Source of the DNA: a bacterium
Lineage (GTDB): Bacteria; Patescibacteriota; Patescibacteriia; SG8-24
Direction of reading: 5' to 3'
Assembly (NCBI GenBank): GCA_021824285.1
Contig: JAKAKZ010000003.1
Coordinates: forward strand, 571 to 64,570
DNA: 64,000 bases
This document shows positions 9,864 to 42,030 of the stretch, in pieces. The notes beneath the pieces were generated by a model. That model was not told the origin of the DNA. It saw nothing but the letters and a program-made list of their open reading frames with translations, and made no database searches. The position numbers were made by a program, and so were the translations under genes. Position 1 is the first letter of the stretch. Every line of letters starts with the position of its first letter.

Positions 9864-11690
9864 ATGCCCGTGATTTCGCGGGAAAAATTGCGCGAATGGT
9901 GGCTGCCTGGCGCGGCTTTTTTGCTGACTTTTGCGGCTTATGTGGCCACCTTGCCGCGGACCGTTTCCTTTGAGGATAGCGCGGAATTCGTGACTGCGGC
10001 CGCCACGCTCGGGATTCCGCACGCTTCCGGCTATCCCTTATACGTGATTTTGGCGTGGCCCTTCGCGCATCTGCCGTTCGGGACGGTGCCCTGGCGCGTA
10101 GCGCTCTTCTCGGCCGTGGTCGCGGGTCTGACTGCGGCTTTCCTAACGTTTTTCGGACGACGGCTGGCGCGGCGCACCGTCGGCCACTGCACGCCCATGG
10201 CCGAGCTCGCGATTCTGGGAGCGGCCCTGCTGTTCGCCTATTCCGGATTGTGGTGGTCGCAGGCGATCTACGCCAAAGTGTATGTTCTGCATGTTCTGCT
10301 GTCCCTGGCGCTGGTGTACGTCGTTTGGCGATGGCTCGAAGAGCCGGAGCGCGGCCGTTGGACCGTCATCGCCGGACTTGTTCTGGCACTCTCATGGGCG
10401 AACCACCTGTTCCTCACCGCGGCACAGTTGCCGCTATTGGTGTTGGCCGTCGTTTTCGGGGCGGGGGACTGGCGGCGGGCCGTGCGCGGCGGACTGAAGG
10501 TTCTGGCCGTGTCGCTTATCGGTCTCGTGCCCTACGTCCTGCTTTTGGTGCGCGTGCCCACCTCGCCCTACGTTACGATTCCGCCGACTGATCTGCCGGA
10601 ACTTTTCCGTTACATGCTGCGGATGAATTACGCCGATATGGGAAGCGGCGGCGAACATCGGATGTGGCTTTTGACCGGCCTGCTGGGCCGCTGGGCCGCG
10701 GAACTCGGTCCGTTGGGAGTCGCTCTCTATCTCGGCGGTACGGTTGCCGTTTGGCGCGCACCGCAGCGCCAGAGGTTTATCGGAGTGCTGTTCGCCGGCG
10801 CCCTGCTCACGGATGTCCTTCTGGTCTTCGGCCGGAGTTTGGGCTGGAGTCCGACCGCCGAATACCTTTCTCGCGTGTATGGGCTCCAGGCCATCACACT
10901 CGGCTTTTTGTCGTCGGCCGTGGCCGTCGCCTGGCTGATCCGCCGGGCGGCTGGTCGCCGGCATCTGGAACTGGCTACGGTCGCCGGGCTCCTTACGCTC
11001 GCAGCCGCTTCCTGTTTCGGCAATTACTTCACGGTCGCTCCGTTCCGCGACGGTTTTGCCGAAAGATACGCACGCGCGATTATCGCGGACCTGCCGGATC
11101 GGGCCGTGCTGGTCGTGGCCGAGCGCGGCTACACGCACGATACTTTTCTATTCACCTTTTCGTACCTTCAGGCGGTCGAACGGTTACGGACCGACGTGAC
11201 GGTAATCCAGGATTCGGTCGAGCGGCCTCTGACGCGGCCGGCGCTTCCGGACGGCTACAGGCAGCTCTCCAAGGAGATGCGGCGGAAGTATCTGTTGCGG
11301 TCAGTTTTGGCGGATGCGCGTTGGGACGGCCGGCCCGTGTTCGCGACCTTCGTGCCCGAGGTGTACGACGATGGCGTTCCTGCCGCGGACGGCCTGGTCT
11401 ATGCGGTACGTTGCGGCAAAGACTGCGGCTGGAAGCGCGGGAATGCTGTCCCGCCGGAGCCGCCGGCCGATGATGTGGTGTTCGGTCAGCCGGCCTTGTC
11501 CGAGATCGTCTCCCACCTGCTTTATGCCGAAGCGGCAGCCGCCGTCGAGGCCGGAGATGACCGTCGGGCAGCACGCCTGACTGCGGAAGCGATCGCCGTC
11601 GACATCGAACCGATGAGCCTCGACTATCAGTCCCTGGTCCGCTACCGGTTCCTGGTCAGCGGGGCCGCCCGGAAGTCGGGGGAGCGCTAG
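9864..11690 (+). CDS. DUF2723/TMEM260-like GT-C fold membrane glycosyltransferase (putative protein O-mannosyltransferase-like)
   Basis: N-terminal FEDSAEF...GIPHASGYPLY motifs are typical of DUF2723. ~11 TM helices, with a C-terminal soluble region. Confidence 0.6.
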   Translation: MPVISREKLREWWLPGAAFLLTFAAYVATLPRTVSFEDSAEFVTAAATLGIPHASGYPLYVILAWPFAHLPFGTVPWRVALFSAVVAGLTAAFLTFFGRRLARRTVGHCTPMAELAILGAALLFAYSGLWWSQAIYAKVYVLHVLLSLALVYVVWRWLEEPERGRWTVIAGLVLALSWANHLFLTAAQLPLLVLAVVFGAGDWRRAVRGGLKVLAVSLIGLVPYVLLLVRVPTSPYVTIPPTDLPELFRYMLRMNYADMGSGGEHRMWLLTGLLGRWAAELGPLGVALYLGGTVAVWRAPQRQRFIGVLFAGALLTDVLLVFGRSLGWSPTAEYLSRVYGLQAITLGFLSSAVAVAWLIRRAAGRRHLELATVAGLLTLAAASCFGNYFTVAPFRDGFAERYARAIIADLPDRAVLVVAERGYTHDTFLFTFSYLQAVERLRTDVTVIQDSVERPLTRPALPDGYRQLSKEMRRKYLLRSVLADARWDGRPVFATFVPEVYDDGVPAADGLVYAVRCGKDCGWKRGNAVPPEPPADDVVFGQPALSEIVSHLLYAEAAAAVEAGDDRRAARLTAEAIAVDIEPMSLDYQSLVRYRFLVSGAARKSGER

Positions 11691-11710: not shown

Positions 11711-11723
11711 ATCTGCTATATTG
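11711..11723 (+). promoter_or_regulatory. extended -10 (TGCTATATT) for smpB-ssrA
   Basis: catctgctatattg. It overlaps the ORF-track TTG start at 11721, which is therefore unlikely. Confidence 0.45.
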
Positions 11724-11771
11724 TTTCTGTCGGCTTTATTCCGTCGATCTTATCAGTTAGTCAGCACGTCC

Positions 11772-12215
11772 GTGCCAGTCCTCACCGTCAACAAGAAAGC
11801 CCGCCACGATTACGATATCCTGGAGACGCTCGAGGTCGGTATTCAGTTGGAAGGGCAGGAGGTCAAATCTGTGCGCGCCGGGCGTATGGGACTTTTGGGC
11901 TCTTACGTGACGATTCGCCAAGGCCAGGCGTGGTTACTGAACGCCCACGTTCCGAAGTATCCGCAGGCCGGTCCGCTGCCGGGCTATGATCCGTACCGCA
12001 CGCGCCGTCTGCTCCTGCACCGTCGCGAGGTGGCCCGGCTCATGGGCCGGCTGGAGACCAAGGGATTGACCCTGGTACCGCTTTCGGTCTATACTAAGCG
12101 GTCTCTGATCAAGCTGGAGATCGGCTTGGGACGGGGCAAGACTCAATACGAAAAACGCGACAGCATCAAGAAGCGCGATCTGGACCGCGAGGTCAGGAGA
12201 GCGCTGAAGTTGTAG
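11772..12215 (+). CDS. smpB: SsrA-binding protein SmpB
   Basis: VNKKARHDYDILETLEVGIQLEGQEVKSVRAG... is SmpB. The probable GTG start at ~11772 lies downstream of the promoter; the exact start is uncertain. Confidence 0.85.
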   Translation: MPVLTVNKKARHDYDILETLEVGIQLEGQEVKSVRAGRMGLLGSYVTIRQGQAWLLNAHVPKYPQAGPLPGYDPYRTRRLLLHRREVARLMGRLETKGLTLVPLSVYTKRSLIKLEIGLGRGKTQYEKRDSIKKRDLDREVRRALKL

Positions 12216-12296: not shown

Positions 12297-12693
12297 GGGG
12301 ATGCCAGGCATCGACGGGGGATCTTTTCACGCCACGCAAGCCGAGCATGTCCGACGTCTCGTTAAACCGCGGACGAATGATCAAGTGCCAACTTGCTCAA
12401 TCGGGTGAAGAACGCGGTGGCCAACGCCTTCGCGCCTTCATTCGCTCCGGCTTTCGCCTAAGCGCGTAAGCCCATCCGTCCGGCCGATGTCCGATAGGTC
12501 GGGTGCGGGTGTCATTTTTCGGACAGAGCCGCGGCGTTTCTCCTGCGCCGGGGCCGACTCATGGCAGGGGATAGGGAAGCCGGATTTCGGCCGATTACCA
12601 CCGGATTCCCGAAATACCTGAACCGGCCTACGCTTGTACACGTGTCGTGAACCGGCCCACCGGACGGGAGTTCGATTCTCCCCATCTCCACCA
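12297..12693 (+). ncRNA. ssrA: tmRNA (ssrA), standard one-piece
   Basis: 5' GGGGATG pairs with 3' CATCTCC before ACCA, including the G3-U pair. The 3' end GGACGGGAGTTCGATTCTCCCCATCTCCACCA is a tRNA-like T-arm. An in-frame tag reading frame ends ...ANAFAPSFAPAFA-TAA. The gene is adjacent to smpB. Confidence 0.85.
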
Positions 12694-13350: not shown

Positions 13351-14079
13351 ATGACGGTTGTGGAACGCCATGATCAGGCGGAACGGGAGGCAATCCGTGA
13401 TGAGGTCCGCGCCGAGATGGCGCAGGAGAAGCACTCGCGGCAACTGAAAGGGTGCGGTTGCGCGCTCCTGGCTTTCGCCGTCCTCATCGGCGCGCCGATC
13501 GGCCTGACCATCTGGGTCATCGCCAAGAGCGGCTTCATCGAGATTCCGGTATTGTCTGATTTGGTCTACCGCCCGCCCGCCCCGGTCCGCCAAGTGGTGC
13601 CGCTCGTCGGGACGGATGCCGAGACCATCGCCAAGTCGCTGGCCGCCACGGCCAAACCAGGTTCGGCCTCCGGAACTGCGGAAATCACGGTTTCCGAACA
13701 GGAACTCACCACTTTCTTGGCGGCCGCGGTCCAGTCCGGCGATTTGCCTCAATTGCCGTTGGCGGGCAAGATCACGTCGGCGCAGGCGGCTATCGATCCG
13801 GATTTCATCGAGATTTATCTTTCGGCCGCGATGGCCAACGGTCAGCCGCAGCCGATCATCCTACGCGTCCTGCCGACGGTAGTGTCTGGCCAGCTCAATT
13901 TCCGGGTCAAAGAAGCCGTCCTCGGCTCCTTTCCTCTCCCGGCTGCCATTTTCGAACCGCTGCTCAACAAGGCCGCGGCCTCCGCCATGGCGCGCATGTC
14001 CGGTACTGGCGGCGCGGTCCTGACGGCCATCAGGCTGACTTCAGGACACATGACCCTCGTCTTCGCCGCCGCCCGCTGA
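13351..14079 (+). CDS. hypothetical membrane-anchored protein
   Basis: TM helix ALLAFAVLIGAPIGLTIWVIA followed by an extracytoplasmic domain. Tightly spaced with its neighbours. Confidence 0.5.
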   Translation: MTVVERHDQAEREAIRDEVRAEMAQEKHSRQLKGCGCALLAFAVLIGAPIGLTIWVIAKSGFIEIPVLSDLVYRPPAPVRQVVPLVGTDAETIAKSLAATAKPGSASGTAEITVSEQELTTFLAAAVQSGDLPQLPLAGKITSAQAAIDPDFIEIYLSAAMANGQPQPIILRVLPTVVSGQLNFRVKEAVLGSFPLPAAIFEPLLNKAAASAMARMSGTGGAVLTAIRLTSGHMTLVFAAAR

Positions 14080-14085
14080 TTCCTT

Positions 14086-14877
14086 ATGTATTCCATTGCC
14101 CGCTGGTTCGCCAACGCCTCGTCCGTGCTCGTCGCGGCCGCTTTTTTCGTTGCGCCCCAGGTCGCGGTACGGTTTCCTGACGAAAAGGGTCTGGTGCTTT
14201 CTTGCGTCGCCGCCGGCATCGCGCTTCTGGCCCTTTCCGCCGGTCTGGCTTCGGCCTCGCGTCTGCCTTTTGCCGGTGCCCTGCGCCTGGCCACGGCTCC
14301 GGCCCTGTTCGCCGTCGCCGGCTTCGGCTGTTTCCTGATTGTCGGTTCGGAATTGCCGCGCCTCGCCGTAGCGACCGTCGTGGGCGCGATACTGGTGCTG
14401 TACTTTTCTCAGTTGGAGATGGCGATGCCGTGGGTCGCCAAGGTCAGTATGGGGCAGTTCCTGCACCTGCTGCATGCCGTGCACACCATGACCGTCTTTT
14501 TTGCCTTCGCTTTCGCCTACGGCATCATCCAATATTCCGATATCCCGACTTGGGTGATGGCGCTCGCCATGACCGTGCTCACGGGCACGGTAGCCTGGCA
14601 GACTCTGCCGTTCGCCGAAGCCTCCGATGACCGGCTGGTCCGGCCCGTATTGGCAGCGGCTTTCGCGCTGATCGGCGGCCAGCTCTATCTCGCATTCTCT
14701 TTCTTGCCCACGCTTTGGACGGTGAATGCCGCTTCCGCCGCGGTGCTCTGCGCCGTGTCACTGCATATCTGCCGGCAGATCGCCGACGGTGATGCGGTGC
14801 CGGTCCGGAACCGGCGCGATCTGGCCGTGGCCGTAGCTCTCGTCATGCTGGTCCTCGGGACCGCTCGTTGGAATTGA
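14086..14877 (+). CDS. hypothetical polytopic membrane protein
   Basis: Six or more predicted hydrophobic helices. No family recognised. Confidence 0.5.
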   Translation: MYSIARWFANASSVLVAAAFFVAPQVAVRFPDEKGLVLSCVAAGIALLALSAGLASASRLPFAGALRLATAPALFAVAGFGCFLIVGSELPRLAVATVVGAILVLYFSQLEMAMPWVAKVSMGQFLHLLHAVHTMTVFFAFAFAYGIIQYSDIPTWVMALAMTVLTGTVAWQTLPFAEASDDRLVRPVLAAAFALIGGQLYLAFSFLPTLWTVNAASAAVLCAVSLHICRQIADGDAVPVRNRRDLAVAVALVMLVLGTARWN

Positions 14878-14880
14878 TAT

Positions 14881-16023
14881 ATGAGTTTTTTCAGCAAAAA
14901 ACCGCAGTTCGACATCTCGCCAGTAATCCTGTCCGTGCTCTTGGGCCTGTTATCCGGAGTCGTCGGCATGCTTTACGCTTCGGCGTATCTGGTGCCGGAG
15001 AATCCGACGTCCGGCAGTATCGTGCAGCAGGTCCGGATCGCGCGTACGCCGGCGGCCAACGATGACCGTCCGGAATGGGCTGATATACGGCTGGAATCCG
15101 TGACCCGCTCCACGGCCGTCCTTTATCGCAGCCTGCCGCCGGGCGGCGGCGCGCTCGCCGGGGCTTTCGTGCCAGGTGAGGCCATCGGTGCCGCTTCGGT
15201 GCTGACTTCCGACGGTTGGCTGATCACCCACGAGTCGGCGTTGGGCGGCGCGGACCGCGGCGCGAACGTCTTCGTGAGCGTCAACGGACGGGCTTATCCG
15301 GTGCGTGCTTACCTTGTCGATCCTTACAGCGGCGTCGCGTTTCTCCGGGTCAACGCCACCAACCTGCCCGTGACCTCTTTCGGCGATGATGCCCGGGTCC
15401 GCGCCGGCGACATGCTTTTCGCGGTCGATGCCGCCGCCGGCCTGCACCGTCTGGAGATGACCGGAGCCGGTGAACGGCCGGCGACCAAGACCGATGAATA
15501 CGTGGTTTCCTCGGAGAAGATCGGCACGGTATTAAGGACGGCCGATGTCGGCGCGATCCTGCCCGGGTCTCCGGTCGTAGGTTCGGACGGCGGGACAGTC
15601 GGCATCTACGCCGGCAAGTCCGCCCTTGGAGGCTATCTGATACCTCTGTCTTCTTTTTTCAGCCAGATCGCTTCCGTGCTCCGCGACCAGAGAGTCCTGC
15701 GTCCGGCTCTCGGGGTGCATTATGTCGACCTGTCGCGTGTCGCTGACCTTTCAGCCGACGGCAGCGGCCAGCGTCGCGGTGCCCAGCTCCAGGGAACGGC
15801 AGACGGCAAGTATCCGGCCGTGGCCCGCCGCAGCGCGGCCGAGAACGCCGGCCTGCGGGCAGGCGATATCATCACTTCCGTCGGAGACGAGGAAGTCAGC
15901 GCCAAGCGCGCATTGGCCGATATCCTGGTCGAGTATGATTCCGGGGCGGCCGTAACCCTCAAGGTCCTGCGAGGCGGCACAGAGCGGAGCGTCAACGTGA
16001 TTTTGGGCCAGTCCGCGCCTTAG
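14881..16023 (+). CDS. HtrA/DegP-like protein with C-terminal PDZ domain (catalytic motif uncertain)
   Basis: N-terminal TM anchor, trypsin-like core (ITHESA..., ...GSPVVGSDGGTVGIY) and a PDZ-like C-terminus (AGLRAGDIITSVGDEEV...VTLKVLRGG). The canonical GNSGGP Ser motif is not clearly present. Confidence 0.5.
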   Translation: MSFFSKKPQFDISPVILSVLLGLLSGVVGMLYASAYLVPENPTSGSIVQQVRIARTPAANDDRPEWADIRLESVTRSTAVLYRSLPPGGGALAGAFVPGEAIGAASVLTSDGWLITHESALGGADRGANVFVSVNGRAYPVRAYLVDPYSGVAFLRVNATNLPVTSFGDDARVRAGDMLFAVDAAAGLHRLEMTGAGERPATKTDEYVVSSEKIGTVLRTADVGAILPGSPVVGSDGGTVGIYAGKSALGGYLIPLSSFFSQIASVLRDQRVLRPALGVHYVDLSRVADLSADGSGQRRGAQLQGTADGKYPAVARRSAAENAGLRAGDIITSVGDEEVSAKRALADILVEYDSGAAVTLKVLRGGTERSVNVILGQSAP

Positions 16024-16082: not shown

Positions 16083-16721
16083 ATGCATGAGTTACCGTTG
16101 GGAAATATCATTTGGAAAAACGCGGGCCGCATTCTGCTGGTCGGTTTGGTGTCGGCCGTCGCCGGTGCCGGGTTGAGCCTGCTTTTCCCGCTCCGCTACA
16201 GCTCGACGATGCGGCTCCTGATCATCCAGAAGCAGCTTTCTGAAGCCGATCCCTACACGGCGATGAAGGCCTCGGAGCGCATCTCCGACAATCTCGGTCA
16301 GATCATCTACACCACGTCGTTCTTCGGTAAGGTGATGGACGACAAGTACAACATCGACAAGTCCATCTTCAGCACCGACGAAATCAAGCGGCGCCGCCAG
16401 TGGTCGGACATGATCGCCACCTCGGTTATCCGCGGCACCGGCATGCTGCAGGTCACGGTCTACCACAAGGATCCGGCGCAGGCGAAACTGATCTCGCAGG
16501 CCGTGGCTAACGTGCTGATCAGCGAAGGTTGGACCTACGTCGGCGGCGGCGATCTGCAGATCAAGCTGGTGGATGAGCCGCTCCTGTCGCGCTGGCCGGT
16601 GAAGCCCAATATTCCGATCAACGCCTTCATGGGACTGGTGCTCGGAGTGCTGGCTGGAGCCGGCCGGTCCATCGCCGAGGCTCGGCGCAAGAACGTCTTC
16701 AGCCTTCCCACCTCCCTTTGA
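16083..16721 (+). CDS. Wzz/polysaccharide co-polymerase-like chain-length determinant protein
   Basis: N-terminal TM helix, periplasmic domain and C-terminal TM (PINAFMGLVLGVLAGAG) with a basic tail give PCP-like topology. Confidence 0.5.
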   Translation: MHELPLGNIIWKNAGRILLVGLVSAVAGAGLSLLFPLRYSSTMRLLIIQKQLSEADPYTAMKASERISDNLGQIIYTTSFFGKVMDDKYNIDKSIFSTDEIKRRRQWSDMIATSVIRGTGMLQVTVYHKDPAQAKLISQAVANVLISEGWTYVGGGDLQIKLVDEPLLSRWPVKPNIPINAFMGLVLGVLAGAGRSIAEARRKNVFSLPTSL

Positions 16722-16784: not shown

Positions 16785-16813
16785 TTGACAGATAGCAATT
16801 TTTCTGCTATATT
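16785..16813 (+). promoter_or_regulatory. sigma70-type promoter TTGACA-N17-TGcTATATT
   Basis: gaTTGACAgatagcaatttttcTGCTATATTtagc. The downstream leader resembles that at 16062-16080 (agcYgttMtctcgcaWa). Confidence 0.65.
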
Positions 16814-16878: not shown

Positions 16879-17547
16879 ATGCGGACTGGCGCACACTTGC
16901 TTTCCCTGCTGTTCCTGTCGGCCTGCGGCGCATCCGAGGCCATCATCGTGGACGTGTCCGATACGGGCACGCCAGCCGATGCTGGTGCGGCGTCGCCGGC
17001 CCCGTCCCCGTTGCCTGACGCCGGCACGCTGCCGGCCGAGGACGCCGGCCAGGTCGCGCCGCCCGAGTTGCCCGTCTGCCTCTCGGACCCGCTCATCGCC
17101 CTGCCGTCGGGCGGCGTCGGCTTCGCCACCTGGCTCGTCGGCGGTTCCCCGTGCGCTCGCGTGAGCGGGCTGCCGGACACCGGCGACCTGCTGGACGACG
17201 AGCTCTATGATTCCGACCGCGACGGCTACCTCGAGCTGACCCGCGCGATACCTGCCGGCGCGTACGGCATCGATCTGCTGCCGGAGGATTGCCGGACGCA
17301 TCAGGCCGGCGAGGCGAGGCCGTATACGGAACGGACCGTCGAACGGGTGCGCGGCGGGGACCGAGACGTCTTCCGCTGCTGGGCGATACCGCGCATCAAC
17401 TGCGTCGACCATGGCGGCAACATCTACGACTGCTGGGTCGAGCGGATCAACTGGTTCTGCGGCCTGGAAATCGCGGTTGCCGCGGACGGTGCGGTCACGG
17501 GCGGCGGCGGTACTTCTGCCGGACGCATACCGCTCGCATGCCGTTGA
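16879..17547 (+). CDS. Cys-rich secreted lipoprotein, paralog family member 1
   Basis: MRTGAHLLSLLFLSAC lipobox, with a GGAGG RBS 5 nt upstream. The DRDGYLELTRAIPAGAYGIDLLPEDC region is homologous to the lipoproteins at 17869-18480 and 19891-20553. Confidence 0.6.
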   Translation: MRTGAHLLSLLFLSACGASEAIIVDVSDTGTPADAGAASPAPSPLPDAGTLPAEDAGQVAPPELPVCLSDPLIALPSGGVGFATWLVGGSPCARVSGLPDTGDLLDDELYDSDRDGYLELTRAIPAGAYGIDLLPEDCRTHQAGEARPYTERTVERVRGGDRDVFRCWAIPRINCVDHGGNIYDCWVERINWFCGLEIAVAADGAVTGGGGTSAGRIPLACR

Positions 17548-17712
17548 CTCGGCCAGACAACGCTTTAAACCCCTCTTCGGAGGGGTTTTTCTTTTGGGTC
17601 AGACCCCAATTACGATTATTTGCCTAAAATTAGCCAATTCTTTCGCAGTCAGACCCTCTGGGAGCACTAAATTGTTTTTATCCTGGGCCGTCAGCCAGCC
17701 TCCATCGCATTC

Positions 17713-17741
17713 TTGACAATTCGGCCGAAATATGGTGTAAT
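17713..17741 (+). promoter_or_regulatory. sigma70-type promoter TTGACA-N17-TGTAAT
   Basis: tcTTGACAattcggccgaaatatggTGTAATgcc. Confidence 0.55.
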
Positions 17742-17868
17742 GCCATGTCCATTCGAATTCCGAGATCGCTGCGCGGCCGTGGCAAGCCTCCTCCTCATGC
17801 CATGGCCGCCGGCGATCCCGGCATTCGGCCGGAGACTGTCCTTTCACCCATCACTGGAGGTCAACGCA

Positions 17869-18480
17869 ATGCGTCACTTCACGAAGCTGTTCCTGGTCCT
17901 CGCGACCTTCTCGCTCACCGCCTGCGGTCTCGGCGAGGCCGGCCCGCTTCCGTCCGACGACACCCACCCCTCGACTTCGGTCGACGGTGGCACGCCGCCG
18001 AGCGGCAACCCCGGCACGACGACGGGCACCACCACGGCGCCCTTCCGCTCGTCCGCGAAGCTCCTGCTCGAGGTCTCGCCGGCGTTCACCGACGGTTCGG
18101 CCTGCGTGGAGATTGTCGGCAACCTGCCGGGCATCACCTGGCAGACCGGCATCGTCACCTCATCGACCCTGACCGACGGTTTCCTGAGCGCCTCTTGCAG
18201 CATGTCGGCCGGCACGTACGACTTCTCGTATCGTGCGGTCACCTGCACGGGTCACGTTCAGGGGAAGTGGGCCGACTACGGCGACAAGGCGAAGCTGAAC
18301 GGACTCACGTCTGACGCCCGCCGCTGGATCGCCTGCAACTGGTACGACTCGGCGAACCGCCGTTGCGTCTCCGTCAGCAACCCGGGATGCAACCTGCGGG
18401 CCACGGTCGACGGTCAGGGAAACCTGACCCCGGCTGGCAACATGGGATCGTTCGCTTCGAGCGACACCAACTGCCAGTGA
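17869..18480 (+). CDS. Cys-rich secreted lipoprotein, paralog family member 2
   Basis: MRHFTKLFLVLATFSLTAC lipobox, a G/T/P low-complexity linker, then a Cys-rich domain ending NPGCNLRATVDGQGNLTPAGNMGSFAS. Confidence 0.65.
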   Translation: MRHFTKLFLVLATFSLTACGLGEAGPLPSDDTHPSTSVDGGTPPSGNPGTTTGTTTAPFRSSAKLLLEVSPAFTDGSACVEIVGNLPGITWQTGIVTSSTLTDGFLSASCSMSAGTYDFSYRAVTCTGHVQGKWADYGDKAKLNGLTSDARRWIACNWYDSANRRCVSVSNPGCNLRATVDGQGNLTPAGNMGSFASSDTNCQ

Positions 18481-18499
18481 CAGTCCTCCAGTGAAACTT

Positions 18500-18535
18500 C
18501 GCCCTCCGGCTCCGGCCGGAGGGCGTTTCTTTATA
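18500..18535 (+). terminator. rho-independent terminator
   Basis: cgccctccgg-ctccgg-ccggagggcg followed by tttctttat. Confidence 0.7.
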
Positions 18536-18681
18536 TGGCGGCAGAGACACTTTTGTTTTGCGCCGTGGTGCGGTGAAAGGCCGTGTTCAGCTCAAGTAGA
18601 GAGCTGAAACAAGCTCAAATAGCCATATTTAAGGCTAAAAAAATTTGGCTTGATTCAGCGAATAATCAGCCCATCACACCC

Positions 18682-18710
18682 TTGACAATTTCTTCCACCC
18701 GTGCTATAGT
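18682..18710 (+). promoter_or_regulatory. sigma70-type promoter TTGACA-N17-TGcTATAGT with ~165-nt structured leader
   Basis: ccTTGACAatttcttccacccgTGCTATAGTc. The leader contains cgctggaagcgctgg and ccccgaaagggcaagccccattcgggg hairpins before the AAGGAG RBS. Confidence 0.6.
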
Positions 18711-18879
18711 CATTTGTTCATTGAGCATGCGTCCAATCAAGCCTTGAAGACGTCCGAAGCGGAATTCGGCCGACTTCAGCGCTGGAAGCGCTGGATTCGC
18801 AACTTGAAAACTTGGCACGAAACAAGCAGTCCCACCCGCCCCGAAAGGGCAAGCCCCATTCGGGGAAGGAGTCAAAAAG

Positions 18880-19773
18880 ATGAAGACCATCACGCTGATC
18901 GCGGTTTCCCTGTTCGCCACGTCCGCCTTCGCCGGCGGCGGCGGCGACAAGATGCCGCCCGTCACGCTGAACGGCATCAACCTCGACAACCTCCCGCCCG
19001 AGGTCGTCGCCTGCCTCAAGCAGGTCGACATCGGCAAGAAGCGCGTCGAGACCAAGAAGACCGCGGTGGCCAAGCTCCAGAAGAAGGCCGAGACGGCCAA
19101 GGGCCCCGAGAAGACCAAGGCGCAAGCCGAGGTCGTCAAGGAGTCCAAGGAGCTCGAGCGGCTCGAAGGCCAGCTCCGCGACCTCTCGCGGCGTCTGAAC
19201 GACGCCGAGAAGAAGTTCGCCGAGAAGGACGACAGCCGTTATGGGGAGGTCGTCAAGGACCTGCTCAAGCAGCAGGCCAAGACCGAAGAGCTGATCGACG
19301 AGGTGAAGGGTCTCAAGAACGAGATCGCCAGCCTCGATCGCCAGCTGAGCTTCGTGAAGATCGGCCCCCGCATCGGTGCTCTGGCCTGGCGGTCCAACGA
19401 CCGCACGACCTACATCGGCGGCCTGCTTGGAGCGCGGCTCACGCTGCGCGCCGAAAGCGTCGACGTCTTCGTCGAGCCGTTCTCGGCCTTCGGCTCCCAG
19501 AACTGCCCGGTCTCGCTGGGCATCAAGGGCGGCGTCGGCCACGAGTTCGGCAACGGCCTCTCGCTCGAGGGCGGCGTCTTCGGCAGCGCGCATCGCATCA
19601 ACAACATGTTGAAGGCGAAGTCAGCGCTGCTGGCGCTCGACCTGGGCGTGGGCTTCCGGCCCGGCAAGTCCGGTCTGTCCCTGAATCTCTCGCTCCTTCT
19701 CGGAGCCGAGTTCGACCAGGGCACTCCGGCCTTCGCCTTCGGCGGCCAGGCCACGATCGGCTGGGACTTCTAG
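18880..19773 (+). CDS. secreted coiled-coil protein with C-terminal beta-rich (OMP-like) domain
   Basis: Signal peptide MKTITLIAVSLFATSAFA and a K/E-rich coiled-coil in the N-terminal half. A Gly/aromatic-rich C-terminal half ends ...GQATIGWDF with a terminal Phe, as in outer-membrane beta-barrels. The opposite-strand ORF 18718-19593 is an artefact. Confidence 0.6.
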   Translation: MKTITLIAVSLFATSAFAGGGGDKMPPVTLNGINLDNLPPEVVACLKQVDIGKKRVETKKTAVAKLQKKAETAKGPEKTKAQAEVVKESKELERLEGQLRDLSRRLNDAEKKFAEKDDSRYGEVVKDLLKQQAKTEELIDEVKGLKNEIASLDRQLSFVKIGPRIGALAWRSNDRTTYIGGLLGARLTLRAESVDVFVEPFSAFGSQNCPVSLGIKGGVGHEFGNGLSLEGGVFGSAHRINNMLKAKSALLALDLGVGFRPGKSGLSLNLSLLLGAEFDQGTPAFAFGGQATIGWDF

Positions 19774-19890
19774 TCCCGAACCACATAAAGGCGCTCGGGC
19801 CGCGGCTCCATGGTGGAGTCGCGGTCCGGGGCCTGCATCAACTGAAAAAAACTGCAGCTCATGCGGGTTCGCCCGCGAGGAGAAGAGAAG

Positions 19891-20553
19891 ATGAAGAACC
19901 TGATGATGACGTGGTTCGCGGCGATGTTCCTGGCCTTCACCCTCACCGCCTGCGGTCTGCAGGAGCCCACGGACGACAGTCCGGCGGCCAACCTGCAGCC
20001 CGACGGCACCGGCACGGTCCTCGTGACCGACGCCGGCCTGCCCGACGCTGACGCTGGGACTCCCGATGCCGACGCCGGTCAGCCGGTCGCGGACGCGGGC
20101 ACTCCCGCTCCCGCGCTCGACGACGGCCCCTTCCGGTCTCCGGCCGCCTGCGTCTTCGACTTCTCGTCGAAGTACGTGAGCGGCTCGACCTGCGGCGAGG
20201 TTCGCGGCAACGCCACGAACATGAGCTGGACGTCGGGGCCCAAGATCCTCGACGCCGACAGGGACGGGTACATGGGGATGTCCTTCCACATGGACCCCGG
20301 GACGTACGAGCTCTCGTACCTCGGGTTCCAGGACTGTGCGACGTCCACGCCAAACCAGGCGTGGGCCCAGTACGGTGGGGAAGACCAGCTCCGGGCCATG
20401 ACTTCGGCGGGTCGCGCGTTCATCCAGTGCAACTGGTGGGACGCGACGGCCAAGGCGAAGGTCACGGTGGGCAACCCGTCGTGCTCCCTGCGGATCACGG
20501 TGGACGGCAAGTGCAGCGTGACCGCAGCGGGCAACATGGCGAACTTCCAGTAA
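19891..20553 (+). CDS. Cys-rich secreted lipoprotein, paralog family member 3
   Basis: MKNLMMTWFAAMFLAFTLTAC lipobox and a D/A/G/T/P linker. The C-terminal FIQCNWWDATAKAKVTVGNPSCSLRITVDGKCSVTAAGNMANFQ is paralogous to the lipoprotein at 17869-18480. Confidence 0.65.
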   Translation: MKNLMMTWFAAMFLAFTLTACGLQEPTDDSPAANLQPDGTGTVLVTDAGLPDADAGTPDADAGQPVADAGTPAPALDDGPFRSPAACVFDFSSKYVSGSTCGEVRGNATNMSWTSGPKILDADRDGYMGMSFHMDPGTYELSYLGFQDCATSTPNQAWAQYGGEDQLRAMTSAGRAFIQCNWWDATAKAKVTVGNPSCSLRITVDGKCSVTAAGNMANFQ

Positions 20554-20755: not shown

Positions 20756-22294
20756 ATGAAGCTTCTTGGCGCAATTTGGCGTAGTTTCGGAGTATCCGAG
20801 GCGGAACGGCGGCACTTTCAGCGCGCCCTGTTCGTCATAGCTCTGGTTGTCGGTGCGCTGGTATCGCTCCTATCCCCCTGGCGCGTATTTGCCGCTGTTT
20901 TCGGCGCGGCGGTCATCGGCCTTACCTTTTCGCGTCCGGGGCTCATCCTGATGTTCCTTGCCGCCTACACGCCGTTCGAGCCATTCCTCCTCAAGTTCGT
21001 GGGCGACGACATCTACGTCTACGCGCGCTATTTTTCCGAGGTCCTGATCTACATCCTGCTCGCGTCCGCGATCCTGCGGCATTGGCTGCTGCGGCGCAAA
21101 TGGCACGGCACGCCCATCGACCTGCCTTTGGCCTTCTTCCTGCTCGTGGCCATCGCTTCGCTCGTCATCAACTTCGTACCGCCGACGATCGGCCTTCTGG
21201 GACTGCGGCAGATCATCCGTTTCATCATCCTCTATTATGCCGTGATTCTCCTGGAGCCGGACCGGCCGTACATCCGCCGCTTTACCGTCATGATGTTCGC
21301 CGTGACGCTGTTCGAGGCCGCGCTCGGGGCGTTGCAGGCCCTGACCGGGGGCGCGCTCGACGAGTTCCTGATTCCGAGCGACCGGAGATTCTTCGAGAGC
21401 GTCCAGCTGACCACGGGCACGGACCAGACCTGGTCACCGGGCACGCGCGTCTTCGCCACGCTCGGGCGCTACGACCAGCTCGGCACGTTCTTGAGCTTTT
21501 TCATGACCATGGCGCTCGGTTTCCTCTACGGTCTCAAGGATAAGATCCTGAAGCACCGCCTGTTCTGGTTCATTCTGGCCTGCACGCCGGCACTCGTGCT
21601 CACCCTGTCGCGCGCCTCCTGGTTCGGCTTCCTTTTGGCACTCGCGGCGCTCGGCGGCTGGCTGATGAAGGACCGGCGCGTGCGCTTCGGCTTCGCGGCC
21701 GTAGCCATCGCGGCCGTCAGCTATCTCGGCATCAGCGGACTCGTGGTGCGCTACATGACCGACTATCCGGAGCAGACTTTGGTGGAAAGGTTCTTTGAGG
21801 CTTTCTCCTACGAGCGCTGGCGCGGCGAGTATATCGGGCTCGGCCGGCTCTTCTGGATCGTGCAGACGCCGACGGTCGTGGTGCGCTCTTCGCCGCTTTT
21901 CGGCGTGGGGCCGGGTCAGTACGGCGGGGGAGCGGCGGCAGCGCTCGGCAACACGCGCGTCTACGAGTCCTTGAACCTGCCTTTCGGCGTTTACGGCACC
22001 GAGGGCTACATCGACAACAACTGGTTTTCGCTCTGGGGCGAGACCGGCACGCTGGGTCTGGTGTTCTATTTCTGGATGTTCTTCGCGCTCGGCCAGCTTG
22101 CCATCAATACCTGGCGCCGCTCGCATGATCAGCTGATCCGCGGTCTGGCGCTCGGTTTCTTCGGCTGTCTGCTCGCCGTTTCCTTCCAGGCTTTTCTGGC
22201 CACCTATCTGGAAGTCCGCACGCTAGCGCTGTATTTCTGGTGTTATGCGGCGTTCCTGGCGGTTTTGTCCAGGCAGGAACGGATTTCGACGTGA
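20756..22294 (+). CDS. O-antigen ligase/polymerase family membrane protein (Wzy_C/WaaL-like)
   Basis: ~12 TM helices. TLSRASWFGFLLALAALGG is typical of O-antigen ligase-like proteins. Confidence 0.6.
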   Translation: MKLLGAIWRSFGVSEAERRHFQRALFVIALVVGALVSLLSPWRVFAAVFGAAVIGLTFSRPGLILMFLAAYTPFEPFLLKFVGDDIYVYARYFSEVLIYILLASAILRHWLLRRKWHGTPIDLPLAFFLLVAIASLVINFVPPTIGLLGLRQIIRFIILYYAVILLEPDRPYIRRFTVMMFAVTLFEAALGALQALTGGALDEFLIPSDRRFFESVQLTTGTDQTWSPGTRVFATLGRYDQLGTFLSFFMTMALGFLYGLKDKILKHRLFWFILACTPALVLTLSRASWFGFLLALAALGGWLMKDRRVRFGFAAVAIAAVSYLGISGLVVRYMTDYPEQTLVERFFEAFSYERWRGEYIGLGRLFWIVQTPTVVVRSSPLFGVGPGQYGGGAAAALGNTRVYESLNLPFGVYGTEGYIDNNWFSLWGETGTLGLVFYFWMFFALGQLAINTWRRSHDQLIRGLALGFFGCLLAVSFQAFLATYLEVRTLALYFWCYAAFLAVLSRQERIST

Positions 22295-22384: not shown

Positions 22385-23635
22385 ATGCGGATCATCTTCG
22401 CCAACAAATTCTACTACTTGAAGGGCGGCGCGGAGCGCTACATGTTCGATTTGGCGGGCCAGCTGAACCGCTTCGGCCACGAGATCGTGCCGTTCGCCAT
22501 GCGCGATGACCGCAACGTCAAGACCTCCTGGAGCCGCAATTTCGTGAGCGCGGTGCGGACCGAGCGCGTCTCCTTCGGCTGGCAGGGGCTGCGGACCGCC
22601 GGGCGGCTGCTCTACTCCTTCGAGGCACGGCGCCGTTTCCGCCGCTTGCTGCACGAGGCGCGGCCGGATGTCCTGCACGTGCACAACATCTACCACCAGC
22701 TCTCGCCGTCGTTCCTGCCCATCATCCGTGAGCAGGGTCTGCCGACGGTCATGACGGCGCACGACTATTCGCTCATCGCGCCGAACTACTCGCTTTACCA
22801 CGATGGCGCCATCTGCGAGATAACCAAGCCCGACCGCTTCTGGCGCGCCGTCGGCCATCGCTGCGTGAAAGGCTCACGGGCCGCCTCCGCGCTCGAGGCC
22901 CTGGAGTTCTCGCTCCACCGCGCGCTCGGTCTTTACATGAAAAATCTTGATGTCATCATCGCACCCAGCCGGTTCATGCAGGCGACGCTCGTCGAGTACG
23001 GCGTGCCGGAGGATCTCATCGTACATATCCCGCATCCGGTGACGACCGAAGGGCGCATGGTCAGCAGCGGCGGGAAATACGCCCTGTTCGTCGGCCGCCT
23101 GTCGCCGGAGAAGGGCGCGGACGTGCTGCTGCGGGCCGCGGTCAAAGCGCCGAAGGTGCCGGTGAAGATCGTCGGCACCGGGCCGGAGGAAGGGAAGCTT
23201 AAGGCGCTTGCCAAGAAACTGAAGCTCTCTAACGTGGAGTTTCTCGGCTTCCGCCAGGGCGCGGAACTTGAAGCCGCCTATGCCGGTGCTGCCTTCGTCG
23301 TCGTGCCGTCCGTCTGGTACGAGGTCGCTGGGCTGGTGGCTCTTGAGGCATACGCGCACGGCAAACCGGTCATCGCCTCGCAGATCGGCGGCTTGGCCGA
23401 GGCCGTGGAGGACGGGGAGACCGGACTGTGCGTTTCCGCCGGCGATGCCGACGGACTCGCAGAGCGAATGAGGCAATTATGGGCCGAACCGAAAGCAGCA
23501 CAGGAAATGGGCCGCGCCGCCCGCGCCTACGTGGAGCGCGAACACGACCCCGAAACCCACGCCAGCCGCATCCTCTGGGCGTATGAATTGGCTAAGGAGC
23601 GGTCGAAAGCAGTCCGTCAAATCCAGGAACGATAA
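22385..23635 (+). CDS. GT4 family glycosyltransferase
   Basis: MRIIFANKFYYLKGGAERY N-terminus and a C-terminal EX7E region (EAYAHGKPVIASQIGGLAEAVEDGETG). Confidence 0.8.
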   Translation: MRIIFANKFYYLKGGAERYMFDLAGQLNRFGHEIVPFAMRDDRNVKTSWSRNFVSAVRTERVSFGWQGLRTAGRLLYSFEARRRFRRLLHEARPDVLHVHNIYHQLSPSFLPIIREQGLPTVMTAHDYSLIAPNYSLYHDGAICEITKPDRFWRAVGHRCVKGSRAASALEALEFSLHRALGLYMKNLDVIIAPSRFMQATLVEYGVPEDLIVHIPHPVTTEGRMVSSGGKYALFVGRLSPEKGADVLLRAAVKAPKVPVKIVGTGPEEGKLKALAKKLKLSNVEFLGFRQGAELEAAYAGAAFVVVPSVWYEVAGLVALEAYAHGKPVIASQIGGLAEAVEDGETGLCVSAGDADGLAERMRQLWAEPKAAQEMGRAARAYVEREHDPETHASRILWAYELAKERSKAVRQIQER

Positions 23636-23671: not shown

Positions 23672-24820
23672 TTAAGCTATTTTTTTGGCCACTCGGACGG
23701 TCGAGAACAATCCGCCATACACCCAATTCACTCCTTTGGCGATCTCGTCCCAGCGGTAGTGGGCGAGGACATGGCGACGGGATTCCGCGCCTTTGGCGCG
23801 GGCCAGCGTCGGCCGGCGCAGGACGAATTCCAGGGAGCGGGCCAGGTCGCGGGCGTTGCCGTTCTTGAACTTCACGCCGCACTCGCCGAGCGCCTCCAGG
23901 TTCTCCGGGATGTCCGAGGCCACCACGCACTTGCCGAAGCTCATGGCTTCGAGCACGGCAATCGGCAAGCCTTCGGATTCGGACGGGTGGGCGATGCAGT
24001 AGGCGTTGGCGAACATCTGGTGCAGGGCCTTGCCCTTCAGGTAGCCGGTGAAGAGGATGTCGGACTGTCCGGCGGCGGCGCGGCGCAGCTCTTTGACGTA
24101 GCCGTCAGTGAAGGCGGAATCGCCCACGATGACCAGCTTCTTGCCGGCCGTGAGGCCGCGGGCCCGCAGGTGCTTCCAGGCCGCGATCAGGTGATGCGCG
24201 CCCTTATGGCGCACGAGACGGGAGACCATGGCTACGTAGCCGCCCTTCTGAAGGTTGAACTTTTTCGTCAGGTCCTGCTTTTGCATCGGCGGCTCTTCCA
24301 CGCCGTTCGGCAGGTAGAGCGCTTCGCTGCCGTAGGTCTCGCGGATATAGCGGCAGAGGGTCTTTGAGACCGCGATGGTGACGTGCGGGAAGCGGCAGGC
24401 GGCGCGCTCGCCGAGCGTGAGCATCAGGCGCGCGAAGCGGCCCCACTTGGCGTGCGTGGCGTCTACGCAATGGAAGGTCACGACCACGCGGCTCTGGGGC
24501 GCGAGGAGGCGCGGGAGCCAGGCGAGGAGCGCCGGGCCGACCCCATGGAAATGGAAGATATCCGTGCCCGCGAAAACCGCGTGCAGGGTGGAGGTGAAGG
24601 TGTGGATGATGGCGTCCAGGTGCTTGGTGCGGATGGTCGGGGTGGCGACAGCCGTAACGCCTGGGGCGTAGCGGCGGTCGGCCGGAGCGTACCAAGTGCG
24701 GGTGTAGACGCGGACATCGTGCCCAGCGCGGCCCAGGCGGACAGCCAAAGCCTCGACGTGCCGTTCAATGCCGCCGAAAGCCGCTGGGATACCCTTTTGT
24801 CCGATCATGGCGATACGCAT
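23672..24820 (-). CDS. GT4 family glycosyltransferase
   Basis: Start at MRIAMIGQKGIPAAFGGIERH (ATG ~24820), downstream of the ORF-track start. C-terminal VLEAMSFGKCVVASDIPENLEALGECG. Confidence 0.8.
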   Translation of the reverse strand: MRIAMIGQKGIPAAFGGIERHVEALAVRLGRAGHDVRVYTRTWYAPADRRYAPGVTAVATPTIRTKHLDAIIHTFTSTLHAVFAGTDIFHFHGVGPALLAWLPRLLAPQSRVVVTFHCVDATHAKWGRFARLMLTLGERAACRFPHVTIAVSKTLCRYIRETYGSEALYLPNGVEEPPMQKQDLTKKFNLQKGGYVAMVSRLVRHKGAHHLIAAWKHLRARGLTAGKKLVIVGDSAFTDGYVKELRRAAAGQSDILFTGYLKGKALHQMFANAYCIAHPSESEGLPIAVLEAMSFGKCVVASDIPENLEALGECGVKFKNGNARDLARSLEFVLRRPTLARAKGAESRRHVLAHYRWDEIAKGVNWVYGGLFSTVRVAKKIA

Positions 24821-24937
24821 ATTTTTTGGCTCAATCAGGCCAATTTGAAGCCTCATTGGACCTAGAAATTTAGCATATTTTGGCGGAAAAGTCAAGGGTC
24901 GGGAGGTTGATGGATAAGTAGAGAAAGAGTGTTCATT

Positions 24938-25042
24938 ATCTGTCATTGCGAGAAGGCCCGCAGGCCGACGAAGCAATCCCGCGCAAATGAGCACGAGATT
25001 GCTTCGTCGCTCCGCCGTGCTTCGCTCCTCGCAATGACAGAT
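24938..25042. other. nested perfect palindromic element (15-bp outer and 12-bp inner stems)
   Basis: atctgtcattgcgag...ctcgcaatgacagat encloses gacgaagcaatc-N18-gattgcttcgtc. It sits between two tandem minus-strand genes. Confidence 0.5.
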
Positions 25043-31699: not shown

Positions 31700-31776
31700 T
31701 TGTTGGGTTGAGAGTTGAAAGTTGACAGTTGAGTTCCGGCCGGGACTTTCAACTTTAAACTCTAAACTTTCAACCG
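31700..31776. repeat. AGTTGA/AACTTT-type inverted repeat
   Basis: gttgagagttgaaagttgacagttgag ... gactttcaactttaaactctaaactttcaacc. Confidence 0.5.
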
Positions 31777-32021
31777 CACGAACAATGCCATTGGGTCTGG
31801 CAACCGAACGCCTGACCGTGCGCCCGATCCGCGCGCCCGCTTCCCTTCGAAAAGGAACGGCCGCTGCAGATCGGCCGCACTGTCCGGTAACCGGTCGTTC
31901 AGACCCGTATATGTCGGAAACACGACGCATCAGCCCACAAGGTCGAGTCCCACAAGGACGCTGGCGCGTACGCCGCCGCAGGATTACCTGCGGGGCTACT
32001 CCAAAAGGATTACTTCAACTT

Positions 32022-37789: not shown

Positions 37790-37906
37790 ACGCGACGGCG
37801 GACCGCCGGCCCCAGCGGCCGGCGGTTTTGGCTCACGGCCCGGCGGTTGCCAAGCCCCGACTTTTCGGCTAGGGTCAGTGATGTATTACAGCTAATTTTC
37901 AACCGT

Positions 37907-41624: not shown

Positions 41625-41852
41625 ATGTTCCCTCCATTCGGCAAATCAGATGACCCGCCGGACTCCGGCATAGAAGGACCCTTCGGTCCGCCTGGCGGCG
41701 GTCCGCCCCCTTCGGACGGCCGCTTCGCCGATTTCGCGGGCGAAGACATGGACGGTTTCCTTGAACCCGTGGATTTCAGCCGGCGACAGCGCCGGATCGA
41801 CGACTGCCTGCAGGTCGGTCTGCACTTCTTCGGGGCCCTGCGTCGGTCATGA
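41625..41852 (+). CDS. small acidic Pro/Gly-rich protein (75 aa), hypothetical
   Basis: Has its own promoter-like -10 and a downstream hairpin with a T-tract (41868-41892). It is compositionally unusual, so coding status is uncertain; it could be a leader peptide or sRNA. Confidence 0.3.
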   Translation: MFPPFGKSDDPPDSGIEGPFGPPGGGPPPSDGRFADFAGEDMDGFLEPVDFSRRQRRIDDCLQVGLHFFGALRRS

Positions 41853-41867
41853 ACAAAATAACTGTAC

Positions 41868-41892
41868 AACCCCGCCTAGCGCGGGTTTTTCC
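41868..41892 (+). terminator. terminator after small ORF
   Basis: aaccccgc-ctagc-gcgggtttttcc. Confidence 0.55.
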
Positions 41893-42030
41893 GTTTCCGT
41901 GCCTTGCGTTGTCGCTACGGCCACGCTCTGTTACAATTCGCGCATTATGCGGTTGTCTGTATCGCCTGTCCATGAGCGCCGTTGCGGCGGAATCGACCGT
42001 ACAGCTAAGCGGTTAAGGACCGTCGGCGCC

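Follow-up and report, generated by a model that had tools for sequence, protein, structure and literature searches.

In Bacteroidota, lipoproteins of the SusE/SusF type display beta-sandwich domains resembling carbohydrate-binding modules (CBM) at the cell surface; they occur as divergent paralogs and are encoded beside a barrel protein and genes for glycan processing. Slam of Neisseria and relatives combines an N-terminal helical periplasmic domain with a barrel, and its gene is located beside genes of variable lipoproteins with long linkers. Small barrels among the outer membrane proteins (OMP), i.e., NspA, OmpX, the N-terminal domain of OmpA/OprF, OmpW and PagL (Pfam families OMP_b-brl, PF13505, and Opacity, PF02462), carry a signal peptide and end C-terminally in G-aromatic-x-aromatic; their eight amphipathic strands, antiparallel and 12-14 residues long, surround a lumen with a polar, glycine-rich face. 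The OmpM/SlpA tethers of diderm Terrabacteria are built of a signal peptide, a small N-terminal domain, a coiled-coil stalk and a C-terminal barrel (PMC10628300; bioRxiv 10.1101/2021.05.31.446380). Here we describe four genes, designated A to D, at positions 16879-20553 of a 64,000-nucleotide stretch, referred to below as the window, from a bacterium of the SG8-24 lineage of Patescibacteria (candidate phyla radiation, CPR; GenBank assembly GCA_021824285.1, contig JAKAKZ010000003.1, positions 571 to 64,570). The anatomy of this unit is well supported: the genes C and D form a conserved pair that encodes a helical protein with a barrel anchor and disulfide-locked beta-sandwich lipoproteins on tethers. 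As to function, we favour, tentatively and as somewhat less than probable, surface glycan-binding lipoproteins with protein C as their partner and anchor. The four genes and the parts predicted within C and D are as follows.

16879..17547, forward strand: gene A, 222 amino acids, divergent member of the lipoprotein family; lipobox Cys16, A/P/D/G-rich linker, 8-Cys domain
17869..18480, forward strand: gene B, 203 amino acids; lipobox Cys19, G/T/P-rich linker, predicted beta-sandwich domain
18880..19773, forward strand: gene C, 297 amino acids, predicted to be exported; signal peptide, helices, beta-barrel
18997-19347, forward strand: helices of C at residues 40-72, 76-115 and 121-156 (residues 40-156), AlphaFold2 model
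19354-19764, forward strand: eight-stranded amphipathic beta-barrel of C (residues 159-295), AlphaFold2 model
19891..20553, forward strand: gene D, 220 amino acids, core family member; lipobox Cys21 (nt 19951-19953)
D residues up to about 76, forward strand: disordered D/A/G/P/T linker, from AlphaFold2 and alignment
20119-20550, forward strand: beta-sandwich head of D (residues 77-220), AlphaFold2 model

All four open reading frames (ORF) were found where the original prediction, made from the DNA letters without database searches, had placed them. Their GC content at third codon positions was 0.83-0.93, a strong bias typical of genuine genes, with C and D among the highest within the window.

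A homolog of C was located directly upstream of a D-family gene in each of the nine independent loci with upstream DNA. These loci are the window, SG8_24, L003, L004/L022, L005, L006, L008, L011 and L013, to which L017 is added as a close relative of the window. A scan of the genome collection with closer family sequences gave seven loci, and a metagenome scan with the C barrel gave three, two of which were known already. The number of D-type genes varied from one to three per locus, and the full arrangement A-B-C-D was found only in the window and L017, which are 62, 58 and 74% identical in A, B and C, respectively. The surrounding block has a conserved order as well: SmpB/tmRNA, two small membrane proteins, an HtrA/PDZ protease, a CpsC/Wzz-like protein, C, one to three D, Wzy_C, two GT4 glycosyltransferases and a large DUF11-like surface protein. 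The core unit is apparently a conserved C-D gene pair inside a polysaccharide/envelope block, and in the window this pair is a predicted operon. Right upstream of the A-type gene of L017 a transposase-like ORF reminiscent of the IS30 type (L017:2-847, reverse strand) replaces the Wzz-like gene, which hints at a rearrangement or movement of the whole unit or of its A-B segment.

Protein C carries a signal peptide of the AxA type at residues 1-18, read from the sequence, with cleavage between AFA and GG (MKTITLIAVSLFATSAFA followed by GG) and no lipobox cysteine; equivalent signal peptides are present in all homologs. Then follow a short conserved N-terminal motif with one conserved cysteine (Cys45), a K/E-rich helical region, and a C-terminal half rich in Gly, Leu and Phe that terminates in ...TIGWDF. 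A secreted protein with a K/E helical part and a Gly/aromatic half ending in Phe had indeed been predicted. In the AlphaFold2 model, built on five sequences with a mean pLDDT of 69 (70-84 in the strands), the C-terminal half forms eight strands of 12-14 residues each, joined by turns of 2-9 residues. Structural comparison placed NspA on top (15.6; 137 residues, 2.3 A), followed by a Legionella OMP (14.8), the N-terminal barrel of OprF (14.6), a designed transmembrane barrel (14.3), OmpW, OmpA and PagL (13.7) and Thermus TtoA (13.4), and soluble designed barrels ranked below membrane barrels in the same search. When averaged over nine homologs down to 21% identity, all eight strands alternate a hydrophobic face with a Gly/polar/charged face, and this contrast was reached in none of 5000 within-strand shuffles. 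The dyad pattern is independent of the AlphaFold model. Aromatic residues are located at the strand ends. NspA was also the best PDB profile match of the barrel (E 0.15), while Pfam OMP_b-brl matched three of nine C-family members at 12.7-14.7 bits (cut-off 28.7; best E 0.0021) and Opacity matched two of nine (best E 0.024), so that all sequence matches to OMP families were below the family thresholds. The claim of an OMP beta-barrel-like C-terminus thus gained an eight-stranded model, a structural match and conserved dyads, but did not reach the Pfam gathering score. Taken from the model, C is a well-supported candidate for a minimal eight-stranded barrel of the OmpX/NspA/OmpA class. A word-index profile search for C found five proteins, and coiled-coil words probably saturated its candidate list.

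An explanation that does without a membrane places C in an ordinary monoderm. The C-terminal half of the protein would be a beta domain, either soluble or associated with the wall or S-layer, that AlphaFold shaped into a barrel from a shallow alignment. The depth and score of the model would suit this, as would the sub-threshold OMP_b-brl matches and the monoderm envelope expected from the literature (PMC8871954). We consider it unlikely, given strands of 12-14 residues with an uninterrupted hydrophobic face in all eight, kept across nine sequences to 21% identity, the aromatics at the strand ends, and NspA being on top both by fold and by sequence profile.

C differs from the small OMP barrels named above in its sub-threshold sequence similarity, in the minimal length of all its loops (2-9 residues), in the helical domain of about 115 residues in front of the barrel, in some orthologs that end in Pro, and in a host lineage thought to lack an outer membrane and the barrel assembly machinery (BAM). 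Because all connecting loops are minimal, the barrel could act only as a membrane anchor, not as a channel or a loop-based adhesin. The order of parts is the one of OmpM/SlpA, but the predicted barrel has eight strands, while OmpM/SlpA barrels have at least 16 and are porin-size and trimeric, and the helices of C may form a three-helix bundle instead of a trimeric coiled coil. No SLH domain was matched in C by Pfam at E <= 1 and no CsaB context was seen around it; membership in OmpM was rejected for the lack of an SLH domain and for a barrel of eight strands, not of porin size. A helical-domain barrel protein encoded beside one or more variable lipoproteins with long linkers resembles the Slam gene pairs too. 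Slam, however, carries TPR repeats and translocates its lipoprotein by a DUF560 barrel of 14 strands, whereas an eight-stranded barrel is too narrow for this; neither TPR nor DUF560 was matched by Pfam in C, and identity with Slam was likewise rejected.

A second protein of possible interest here was seen between the D-type and Wzy_C genes at L004:6804-7364 (the same as L022:1585-2145). It has 186 amino acids, alternating Gly/hydrophobic segments, the ending ...LRLAYEF and a weak similarity to the C barrel (E about 1e-3, small database), and by these features the cluster seems to encode another small barrel-like protein besides C. Further barrel-like proteins were looked for in the 64-kb window, where none was found.

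Lipoproteins A, B and D begin with the lipoboxes LSAC, LTAC and LTAC, respectively, continue with a low-complexity linker, and end with a domain of 6-8 cysteines, which is the architecture originally read for them. Position C21-G22 (D numbering) is invariant in the core alignment of 25 sequences, and a strict lipobox pattern was positive in 87 of 104 near-full family members. The other 17 mostly have variant lipoboxes (NCG, GCG, ACG) or are truncated at the N-terminus, and at least one, P0081, has a type I-like signal peptide. Almost all complete members of the family are hence predicted lipoproteins. Genes for Lgt and LspA were not found in the 64-kb window. A few longer members carry fn3-like or small Cys-knot modules between lipobox and head. 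The residues right after the lipid-modified cysteine are unusually conserved in the core family, reading C-G-L-Q-E and then acidic residues (window 19891-19980). Acidic lipoprotein export and sorting signals are described in Bacteroidota, and by analogy this stretch could be a sorting signal instead of a mere linker.

B and D are clear paralogs, 35% identical over the full length (E 2e-37). The match of A to D is weaker (E 1e-8) and comes in part from the linker. When A and B were left out of the family profile, A still scored 36.9 bits against it, and its orthologs P0071, P0083, P0090 and P0131 matched the family profile on their own in a library of 1.84 billion proteins; because of these independent matches we regard A as a real though divergent member. 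An exhaustive profile search of the same 1.84 billion proteins gave 126 representatives at E <= 1e-3, 84 of them at E <= 1e-10. The family is genuine but small. In sequence and profile searches A, B and D had no Pfam or NCBIfam match and no meaningful PDB match, and the named records belong to Parcubacteria/Patescibacteria of the SG8_24 type, which agrees with the lineage-specific family that had been proposed. Matches to ankyrin and FG-GAP-type proteins were set aside as motif-level, being confined to the DxDGDG loop. A scan of a viral-contig collection gave no relatives, and a phage origin was dropped.

The shared motifs held in part. The C-terminal NP(G/S)C(N/S)LR(A/I)TVDG...AGNM motif common to B and D is correct, whereas DRDGY...DC, claimed for all three proteins, is present in A and D but degenerate in B (TDGF...TC). 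For the proposed diversification of the family there are weak indications only, namely the copy number of one to three per locus and the lower identity of the A and B orthologs compared to C; beyond that it is not established.

Cysteine presence and absence was compared across 105 aligned family members. C87 and C208 (D numbering) are both present in 42 members and both absent in 62, with one exception (phi 0.98). C101 and C149 follow each other with phi 0.86, and C180 and C198 are both present in 100 of 105 (phi 0.77). The predicted disulfide map of D is C87-C208, C101-C149 and C180-C198. Since the cysteine pairs covary, the head should fold outside the cytoplasm, under oxidising conditions. 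The C87-C208-type pair is missing from B and from its relative P0021, which have an alternative one, with one cysteine at the RRC/HTC position and one near the C-terminus; in B these are Cys166 and Cys202, positioned as in P0021. By alignment A retains the two core pairs, C92-C138 and C167-C194, and adds further ones.

AlphaFold2 gave for D, from an alignment of 25 sequences, a disordered tether at about residues 22-75 and a confident head at residues 75-220, with pLDDT >90 for 133 residues. A structure prediction and a disulfide pattern had been proposed as a check of the Cys-rich domain; the head came out confidently, and the pairs were read from covariation. The tethers of the lipoproteins comprise about 50-60 residues and are disordered, acidic and rich in Pro/Thr. 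A Foldseek search with the D model ranked the CBM48 domain of AMPK-beta first (E 0.02, probability 0.99), which suggests a beta-sandwich of CBM20/48-like topology. CBM20 and CBM48 comprise starch-binding domains and the glycogen-binding domain of AMPK beta, and the D head resembles them in fold only, without sequence similarity. It differs from them by its size of about 145 residues, by an extra segment of about 60 residues in which two short helices and the invariant CNWW motif are located, by a DxDxDG loop, by as many as three disulfides, and by the lipid anchor on a long tether. The loop, D121-G126, is DxDxDG-like, with D-x-D-G (D123, D125, G126) near-invariant in the family, and giant FG-GAP-like proteins match the family at their D-x-D-G-D-G loop only; by its pattern it is probably a Ca2+ site. 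Residues W113, W158, W182, Y139, Y143 and Y161 are invariant or nearly so in the family alignment. The likeness of A, B and D to SusE/SusF, i.e., lipobox, CBM-like domains, an adjacent barrel gene and divergent paralogs, is one of concept only, as SusE/SusF have true diderm hosts, a 22-stranded TonB-dependent transporter as a partner and no sequence relation. Polysaccharide export proteins of the OPX (Wza) type were rejected for A, B and D, which have no Pfam match to Poly_export (PES) or SLBB and a predicted beta-sandwich, not beta-grasp, fold.

The CBM-like topology, the invariant Trp and Tyr residues and the fixed place between chain-length, polymerase/ligase and glycosyltransferase genes make glycan binding the most likely role of the heads. 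In the reading that we favour, the genes would form a lineage-specific cell-envelope module of the SG8_24-type Patescibacteria clade, made of a barrel-anchored stalk and tethered lipoproteins. C would be exported via Sec, with cleavage of its signal peptide, and would consist of about 115 residues arranged as a helical stalk or bundle, followed by the membrane-anchoring barrel. D, and in this genome the extra paralogs A and B, would be lipid-anchored by the lipobox cysteine and display the compact head, locked by up to three predicted disulfides, on the tether. Judged by gene linkage, C and D would act together at the cell surface, with C supplying the barrel-anchored stalk as lipoprotein partner. 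The glycan bound by the heads would be either the polymer made by the flanking genes, which they would hold or organise on the surface, or one that belongs to a partner cell or particle, and the extra copies A and B would broaden or vary the binding repertoire.

The same neighbourhood allows the lipoproteins to be mainly glycoprotein substrates, with linkers O-glycosylated by the adjacent Wzy_C protein acting as a PglL-type oligosaccharyltransferase, which would result in a glycosylated coat. The Wzy_C family spans WaaL ligases and PglL/PilO O-oligosaccharyltransferases, of which the latter target low-complexity Ser/Ala/Pro regions of lipoproteins. In every long locus D is followed, directly or after one small gene, by Wzy_C and GT4 enzymes. 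The linkers show disorder and a high content of T, S, P, A and D. Near the cluster, at 9864-11690, a 608-aa TMEM260-like GT-C protein (protein O-mannosyltransferase-like) is encoded, which could bear on a possible glycosylation of the Ser/Thr/Pro-rich linkers. However, a Wzz/CpsC-like partner beside Wzy_C suits a polymerase role equally, linker composition is not conserved, with some linkers poor in Ser/Thr, there is no recognisable sequon, and C is left unexplained. We find this doubtful as the main role, while it is compatible with glycan-binding heads.

Attachment to a host or particle would be another use of the same parts. A secreted C would self-insert its barrel into the outer membrane of a partner, or the heads would bind partner surfaces by protein-protein contacts, and the expansion to A and B would be an adaptation to different partners. 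CPR bacteria are commonly epibionts, and small eight-stranded barrels can fold into bilayers without machinery, as is established for OmpA and OmpX. The lipoprotein copy number of one to three among relatives, the faster evolution of A and B relative to C, and the absence of the family from viral contigs, which indicates a cellular trait, are in line with it. It is nevertheless improbable in our view: SG8-24 cells are described as free-living or on lake snow, unattached to hosts (PMC9166423), the barrel is practically without external loops, no secretion-system or toxin-like gene accompanies the pair, and the position within a housekeeping envelope block is fixed.

Several points weigh against glycan-binding lipoproteins anchored by a barrel protein. 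The model of C is shallow, and OMP_b-brl stays far under its gathering score. The C-terminal endings vary by locus: ...GWDF in the window, P0025, P0026 and L003, ...GIDW in SG8_24, ...GLTF in L013, ...EFP in L004, L005 and L008, and ...LP in L006 and L011, so that five of the nine aligned barrels do not end in an aromatic residue, unlike a typical BAM beta-signal. Gene linkage is the only ground for an interaction of C with D, and two distant family members, P0081 and P0096, have no C gene nearby, by which the head domain is not strictly C-dependent; one of the distant members without C adjoins a Bac_transf sugar transferase. No Omp85/BamA was found in the 64-kb window, the only part of the genome that was covered. 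Finally, CPR are regarded as monoderm with porins lost, which makes a transmembrane barrel unexpected.

Among named records, the best relative of D comes from Parcubacteria bacterium SG8_24, where it is listed as a hypothetical protein, and SG8-24 is an order of class ABY1 within Patescibacteria (PMC9166423). The GC content of the window, 63%, is at the upper end of the CPR range reported in the same study. The scan of species-representative genomes gave SG8_24, one metagenome-assembled genome (MAG) of "Patescibacteria group", L011 ("bacterium isolate nzgw371"), three contigs labelled Gammaproteobacteria and one labelled Binatia. The latter four (L008, L009, L012 and L013), titled "uncultured Gammaproteobacteria bacterium" or "Candidatus Binatia bacterium", carry the Parcubacteria-type cluster. 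It could be argued from these labels, three and one of the seven genome loci, respectively, that our contig, too, comes from a misassigned diderm bacterium and that C is an ordinary small OMP. Yet ten genes of the 144-kb contig L013, labelled "Gammaproteobacteria", are arranged as in SG8_24, L011 and the metagenome contigs L004-L006, and because of this order it is the Gammaproteobacteria and Binatia labels that are most likely mis-assigned; they were rejected as a sign of a diderm host. With SG8-24 being a recognised order of ABY1 (PMC9166423) and no lipopolysaccharide (LPS), Bam, Lol or Tol genes in the 64-kb window, a misassigned diderm is very improbable.

In descriptions of CPR cells imaged so far the envelope is monoderm (PMC8871954). 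For the Chloroflexi/CPR/Dormibacteraeota clade a loss of porins and SLH domains is reported (bioRxiv 10.1101/2021.05.31.446380). As a marker of didermy, Omp85 is considered the best (PMC13067283). In some phylogenies CPR are placed within Terrabacteria. The hint of a diderm envelope in the original prediction is not established against this literature, which treats Patescibacteria as monoderm and without porins (PMC8871954; bioRxiv 10.1101/2021.05.31.446380). If the clade nevertheless had a true second lipid membrane or its remnant, C would be a genuine OMP with a stalk reaching the wall or the inner membrane in the manner of OmpM/SlpA tethers, and the D-family lipoproteins, on their long linkers and with an anchor in the inner or the outer membrane, would be its periplasmic or surface partners. 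The conserved lipid-facing dyads, the HtrA-type PDZ protease conserved in the cluster, and the second small barrel-like protein ending in AYEF in the L004/L022 cluster fit such an envelope. The ending G-W-D-F of C is like the G-Y-R-F of OmpX and NspA. The part order of signal peptide, short N-terminal domain, coiled coil and barrel parallels OmpM (PMC10628300). Against it speak, besides the monoderm images and the reported loss of porins and SLH domains, the absence of an SLH domain from C and of Omp85 from the window, a polysaccharide neighbour of the Gram-positive CpsC type, and the C orthologs without a terminal aromatic; we give a second membrane a small chance only. Similarly little weight is given to the more general proposal that Patescibacteria of the ABY1/SG8-24 type retain, or have re-acquired, genuine outer-membrane-type barrels with a beta-signal-like C-terminus, organised with tethered lipoproteins in an envelope operon. 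If this were true, some CPR would have an outer lipid layer, or a relic outer-membrane tether system akin in architecture to OmpM, in contradiction to the current view of the whole Chloroflexi/CPR/Dormibacteraeota clade as monoderm with porins lost.

The transcription signals predicted around the four genes are the following.

16785..16813, forward strand: gene A, sigma-70-like promoter TTGACA-17-TATATT; a TG precedes the -10
17567..17588, forward strand: terminator-like hairpin after gene A, followed by a T run
17713..17741, forward strand: promoter-like site of gene B, TTGACA-17-TGTAAT, with TG extension, read by eye
18500..18525, forward strand: after gene B, strong terminator-like hairpin with 10 G-C among its 11 pairs
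18682..18710, forward strand: C-D unit, sigma-70-like promoter TTGACA-17-TATAGT; a TG precedes the -10
19774..19890, forward strand: C-D intergenic spacer, 117 nt, with a GC-rich hairpin and a GGAG Shine-Dalgarno sequence before the D start codon
20621..20647, forward strand: terminator-like hairpin after gene D, from a sequence scan

The promoter scanner passed over the site of gene B because position 2 of its -10 is a G. The Wzz-like gene upstream ends with a terminator-like hairpin as well. In the 117-nt spacer between C and D the scan gave neither a promoter nor a terminator match, and for this reason D is most likely co-transcribed with C. The transcription units would then most likely be A, B and C-D. 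Of the strong promoters supposed for each lipoprotein gene, those of A and B were found as near-consensus sigma-70 sites, while D has none in the C-D spacer and its nearest one precedes C. The spacer hairpin, at about 19800-19826, has the form CCGCGGCTCCA-TGG-TGGAGTCGCGG, is GC-rich and lacks a T run; it might influence the stability of the mRNA or the ratio in which C and D are expressed. From predicted promoter to start codon, long 5' leaders are implied for B (about 125 nt, 17742-17868) and C (about 165 nt, 18711-18879), and in these no Rfam family was found at gathering threshold.

Beyond the four genes, the conserved block in the window comprises the following features.

11721-12215: smpB, with tmRNA directly downstream at 12297-12693 (Rfam, 126.7 bits)
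14881..16023, forward strand: HtrA-type serine protease, membrane-anchored, with one PDZ domain, conserved neighbour
16083..16721, forward strand: Wzz/CpsC-type chain-length-determinant-like membrane protein, 212 amino acids, family matches below threshold, conserved upstream neighbour
20756..22294, forward strand: Wzy_C (O-antigen ligase/polymerase family) polytopic protein, 512 amino acids, conserved downstream neighbour
22385-23635, forward strand: GT4 glycosyltransferase, following the Wzy_C gene
23672-24994, reverse strand: GT4 glycosyltransferase, following the Wzy_C gene

The smpB gene at the head of the cluster was also found in the SG8_24 contigs L001 and L002. The tmRNA at 12297-12693 was not reported by ARAGORN. 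In all related loci the HtrA gene is closely preceded by the genes of a membrane-anchored protein of 242 amino acids (13351-14079), with weak matches to LmeA-like and DUF2140 proteins, a lipid-binding family, and of a polytopic membrane protein of 263 amino acids (14086-14877) without family match. A lipid-binding envelope protein within the same block as a barrel protein may be of relevance. Further downstream, the ORFs 31722-35561, 37847-39106 and 39183-41498 (1279, 419 and 771 amino acids) have no Pfam match, and at least the 771-aa one has a signal-peptide-like N-terminus; near them are FG-GAP-bearing proteins, one of GHL15 type (27170-29215) and one subtilase (41761-44037). Together these large ORFs and FG-GAP proteins are a typical CPR-style set of giant surface proteins.

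The module described here is made of known kinds of parts, newly combined in an unexpected lineage. The lipoproteins belong to an uncharacterised CPR surface family, for which fold and disulfide map are now predicted; its loop is a probable Ca2+ site, and its genomic partner is defined. Protein C is the more notable of the two, since a predicted barrel of OmpX/NspA class with a helical stalk is conserved in nine loci of a lineage assumed to be without an outer membrane. If the barrel sits in the membrane of its producer, it would bear on how and when Terrabacteria lost their outer membranes, and on the real structure of the CPR envelope. Should it insert into the membrane of a partner, ultra-small bacteria would have an attachment device of a new kind.

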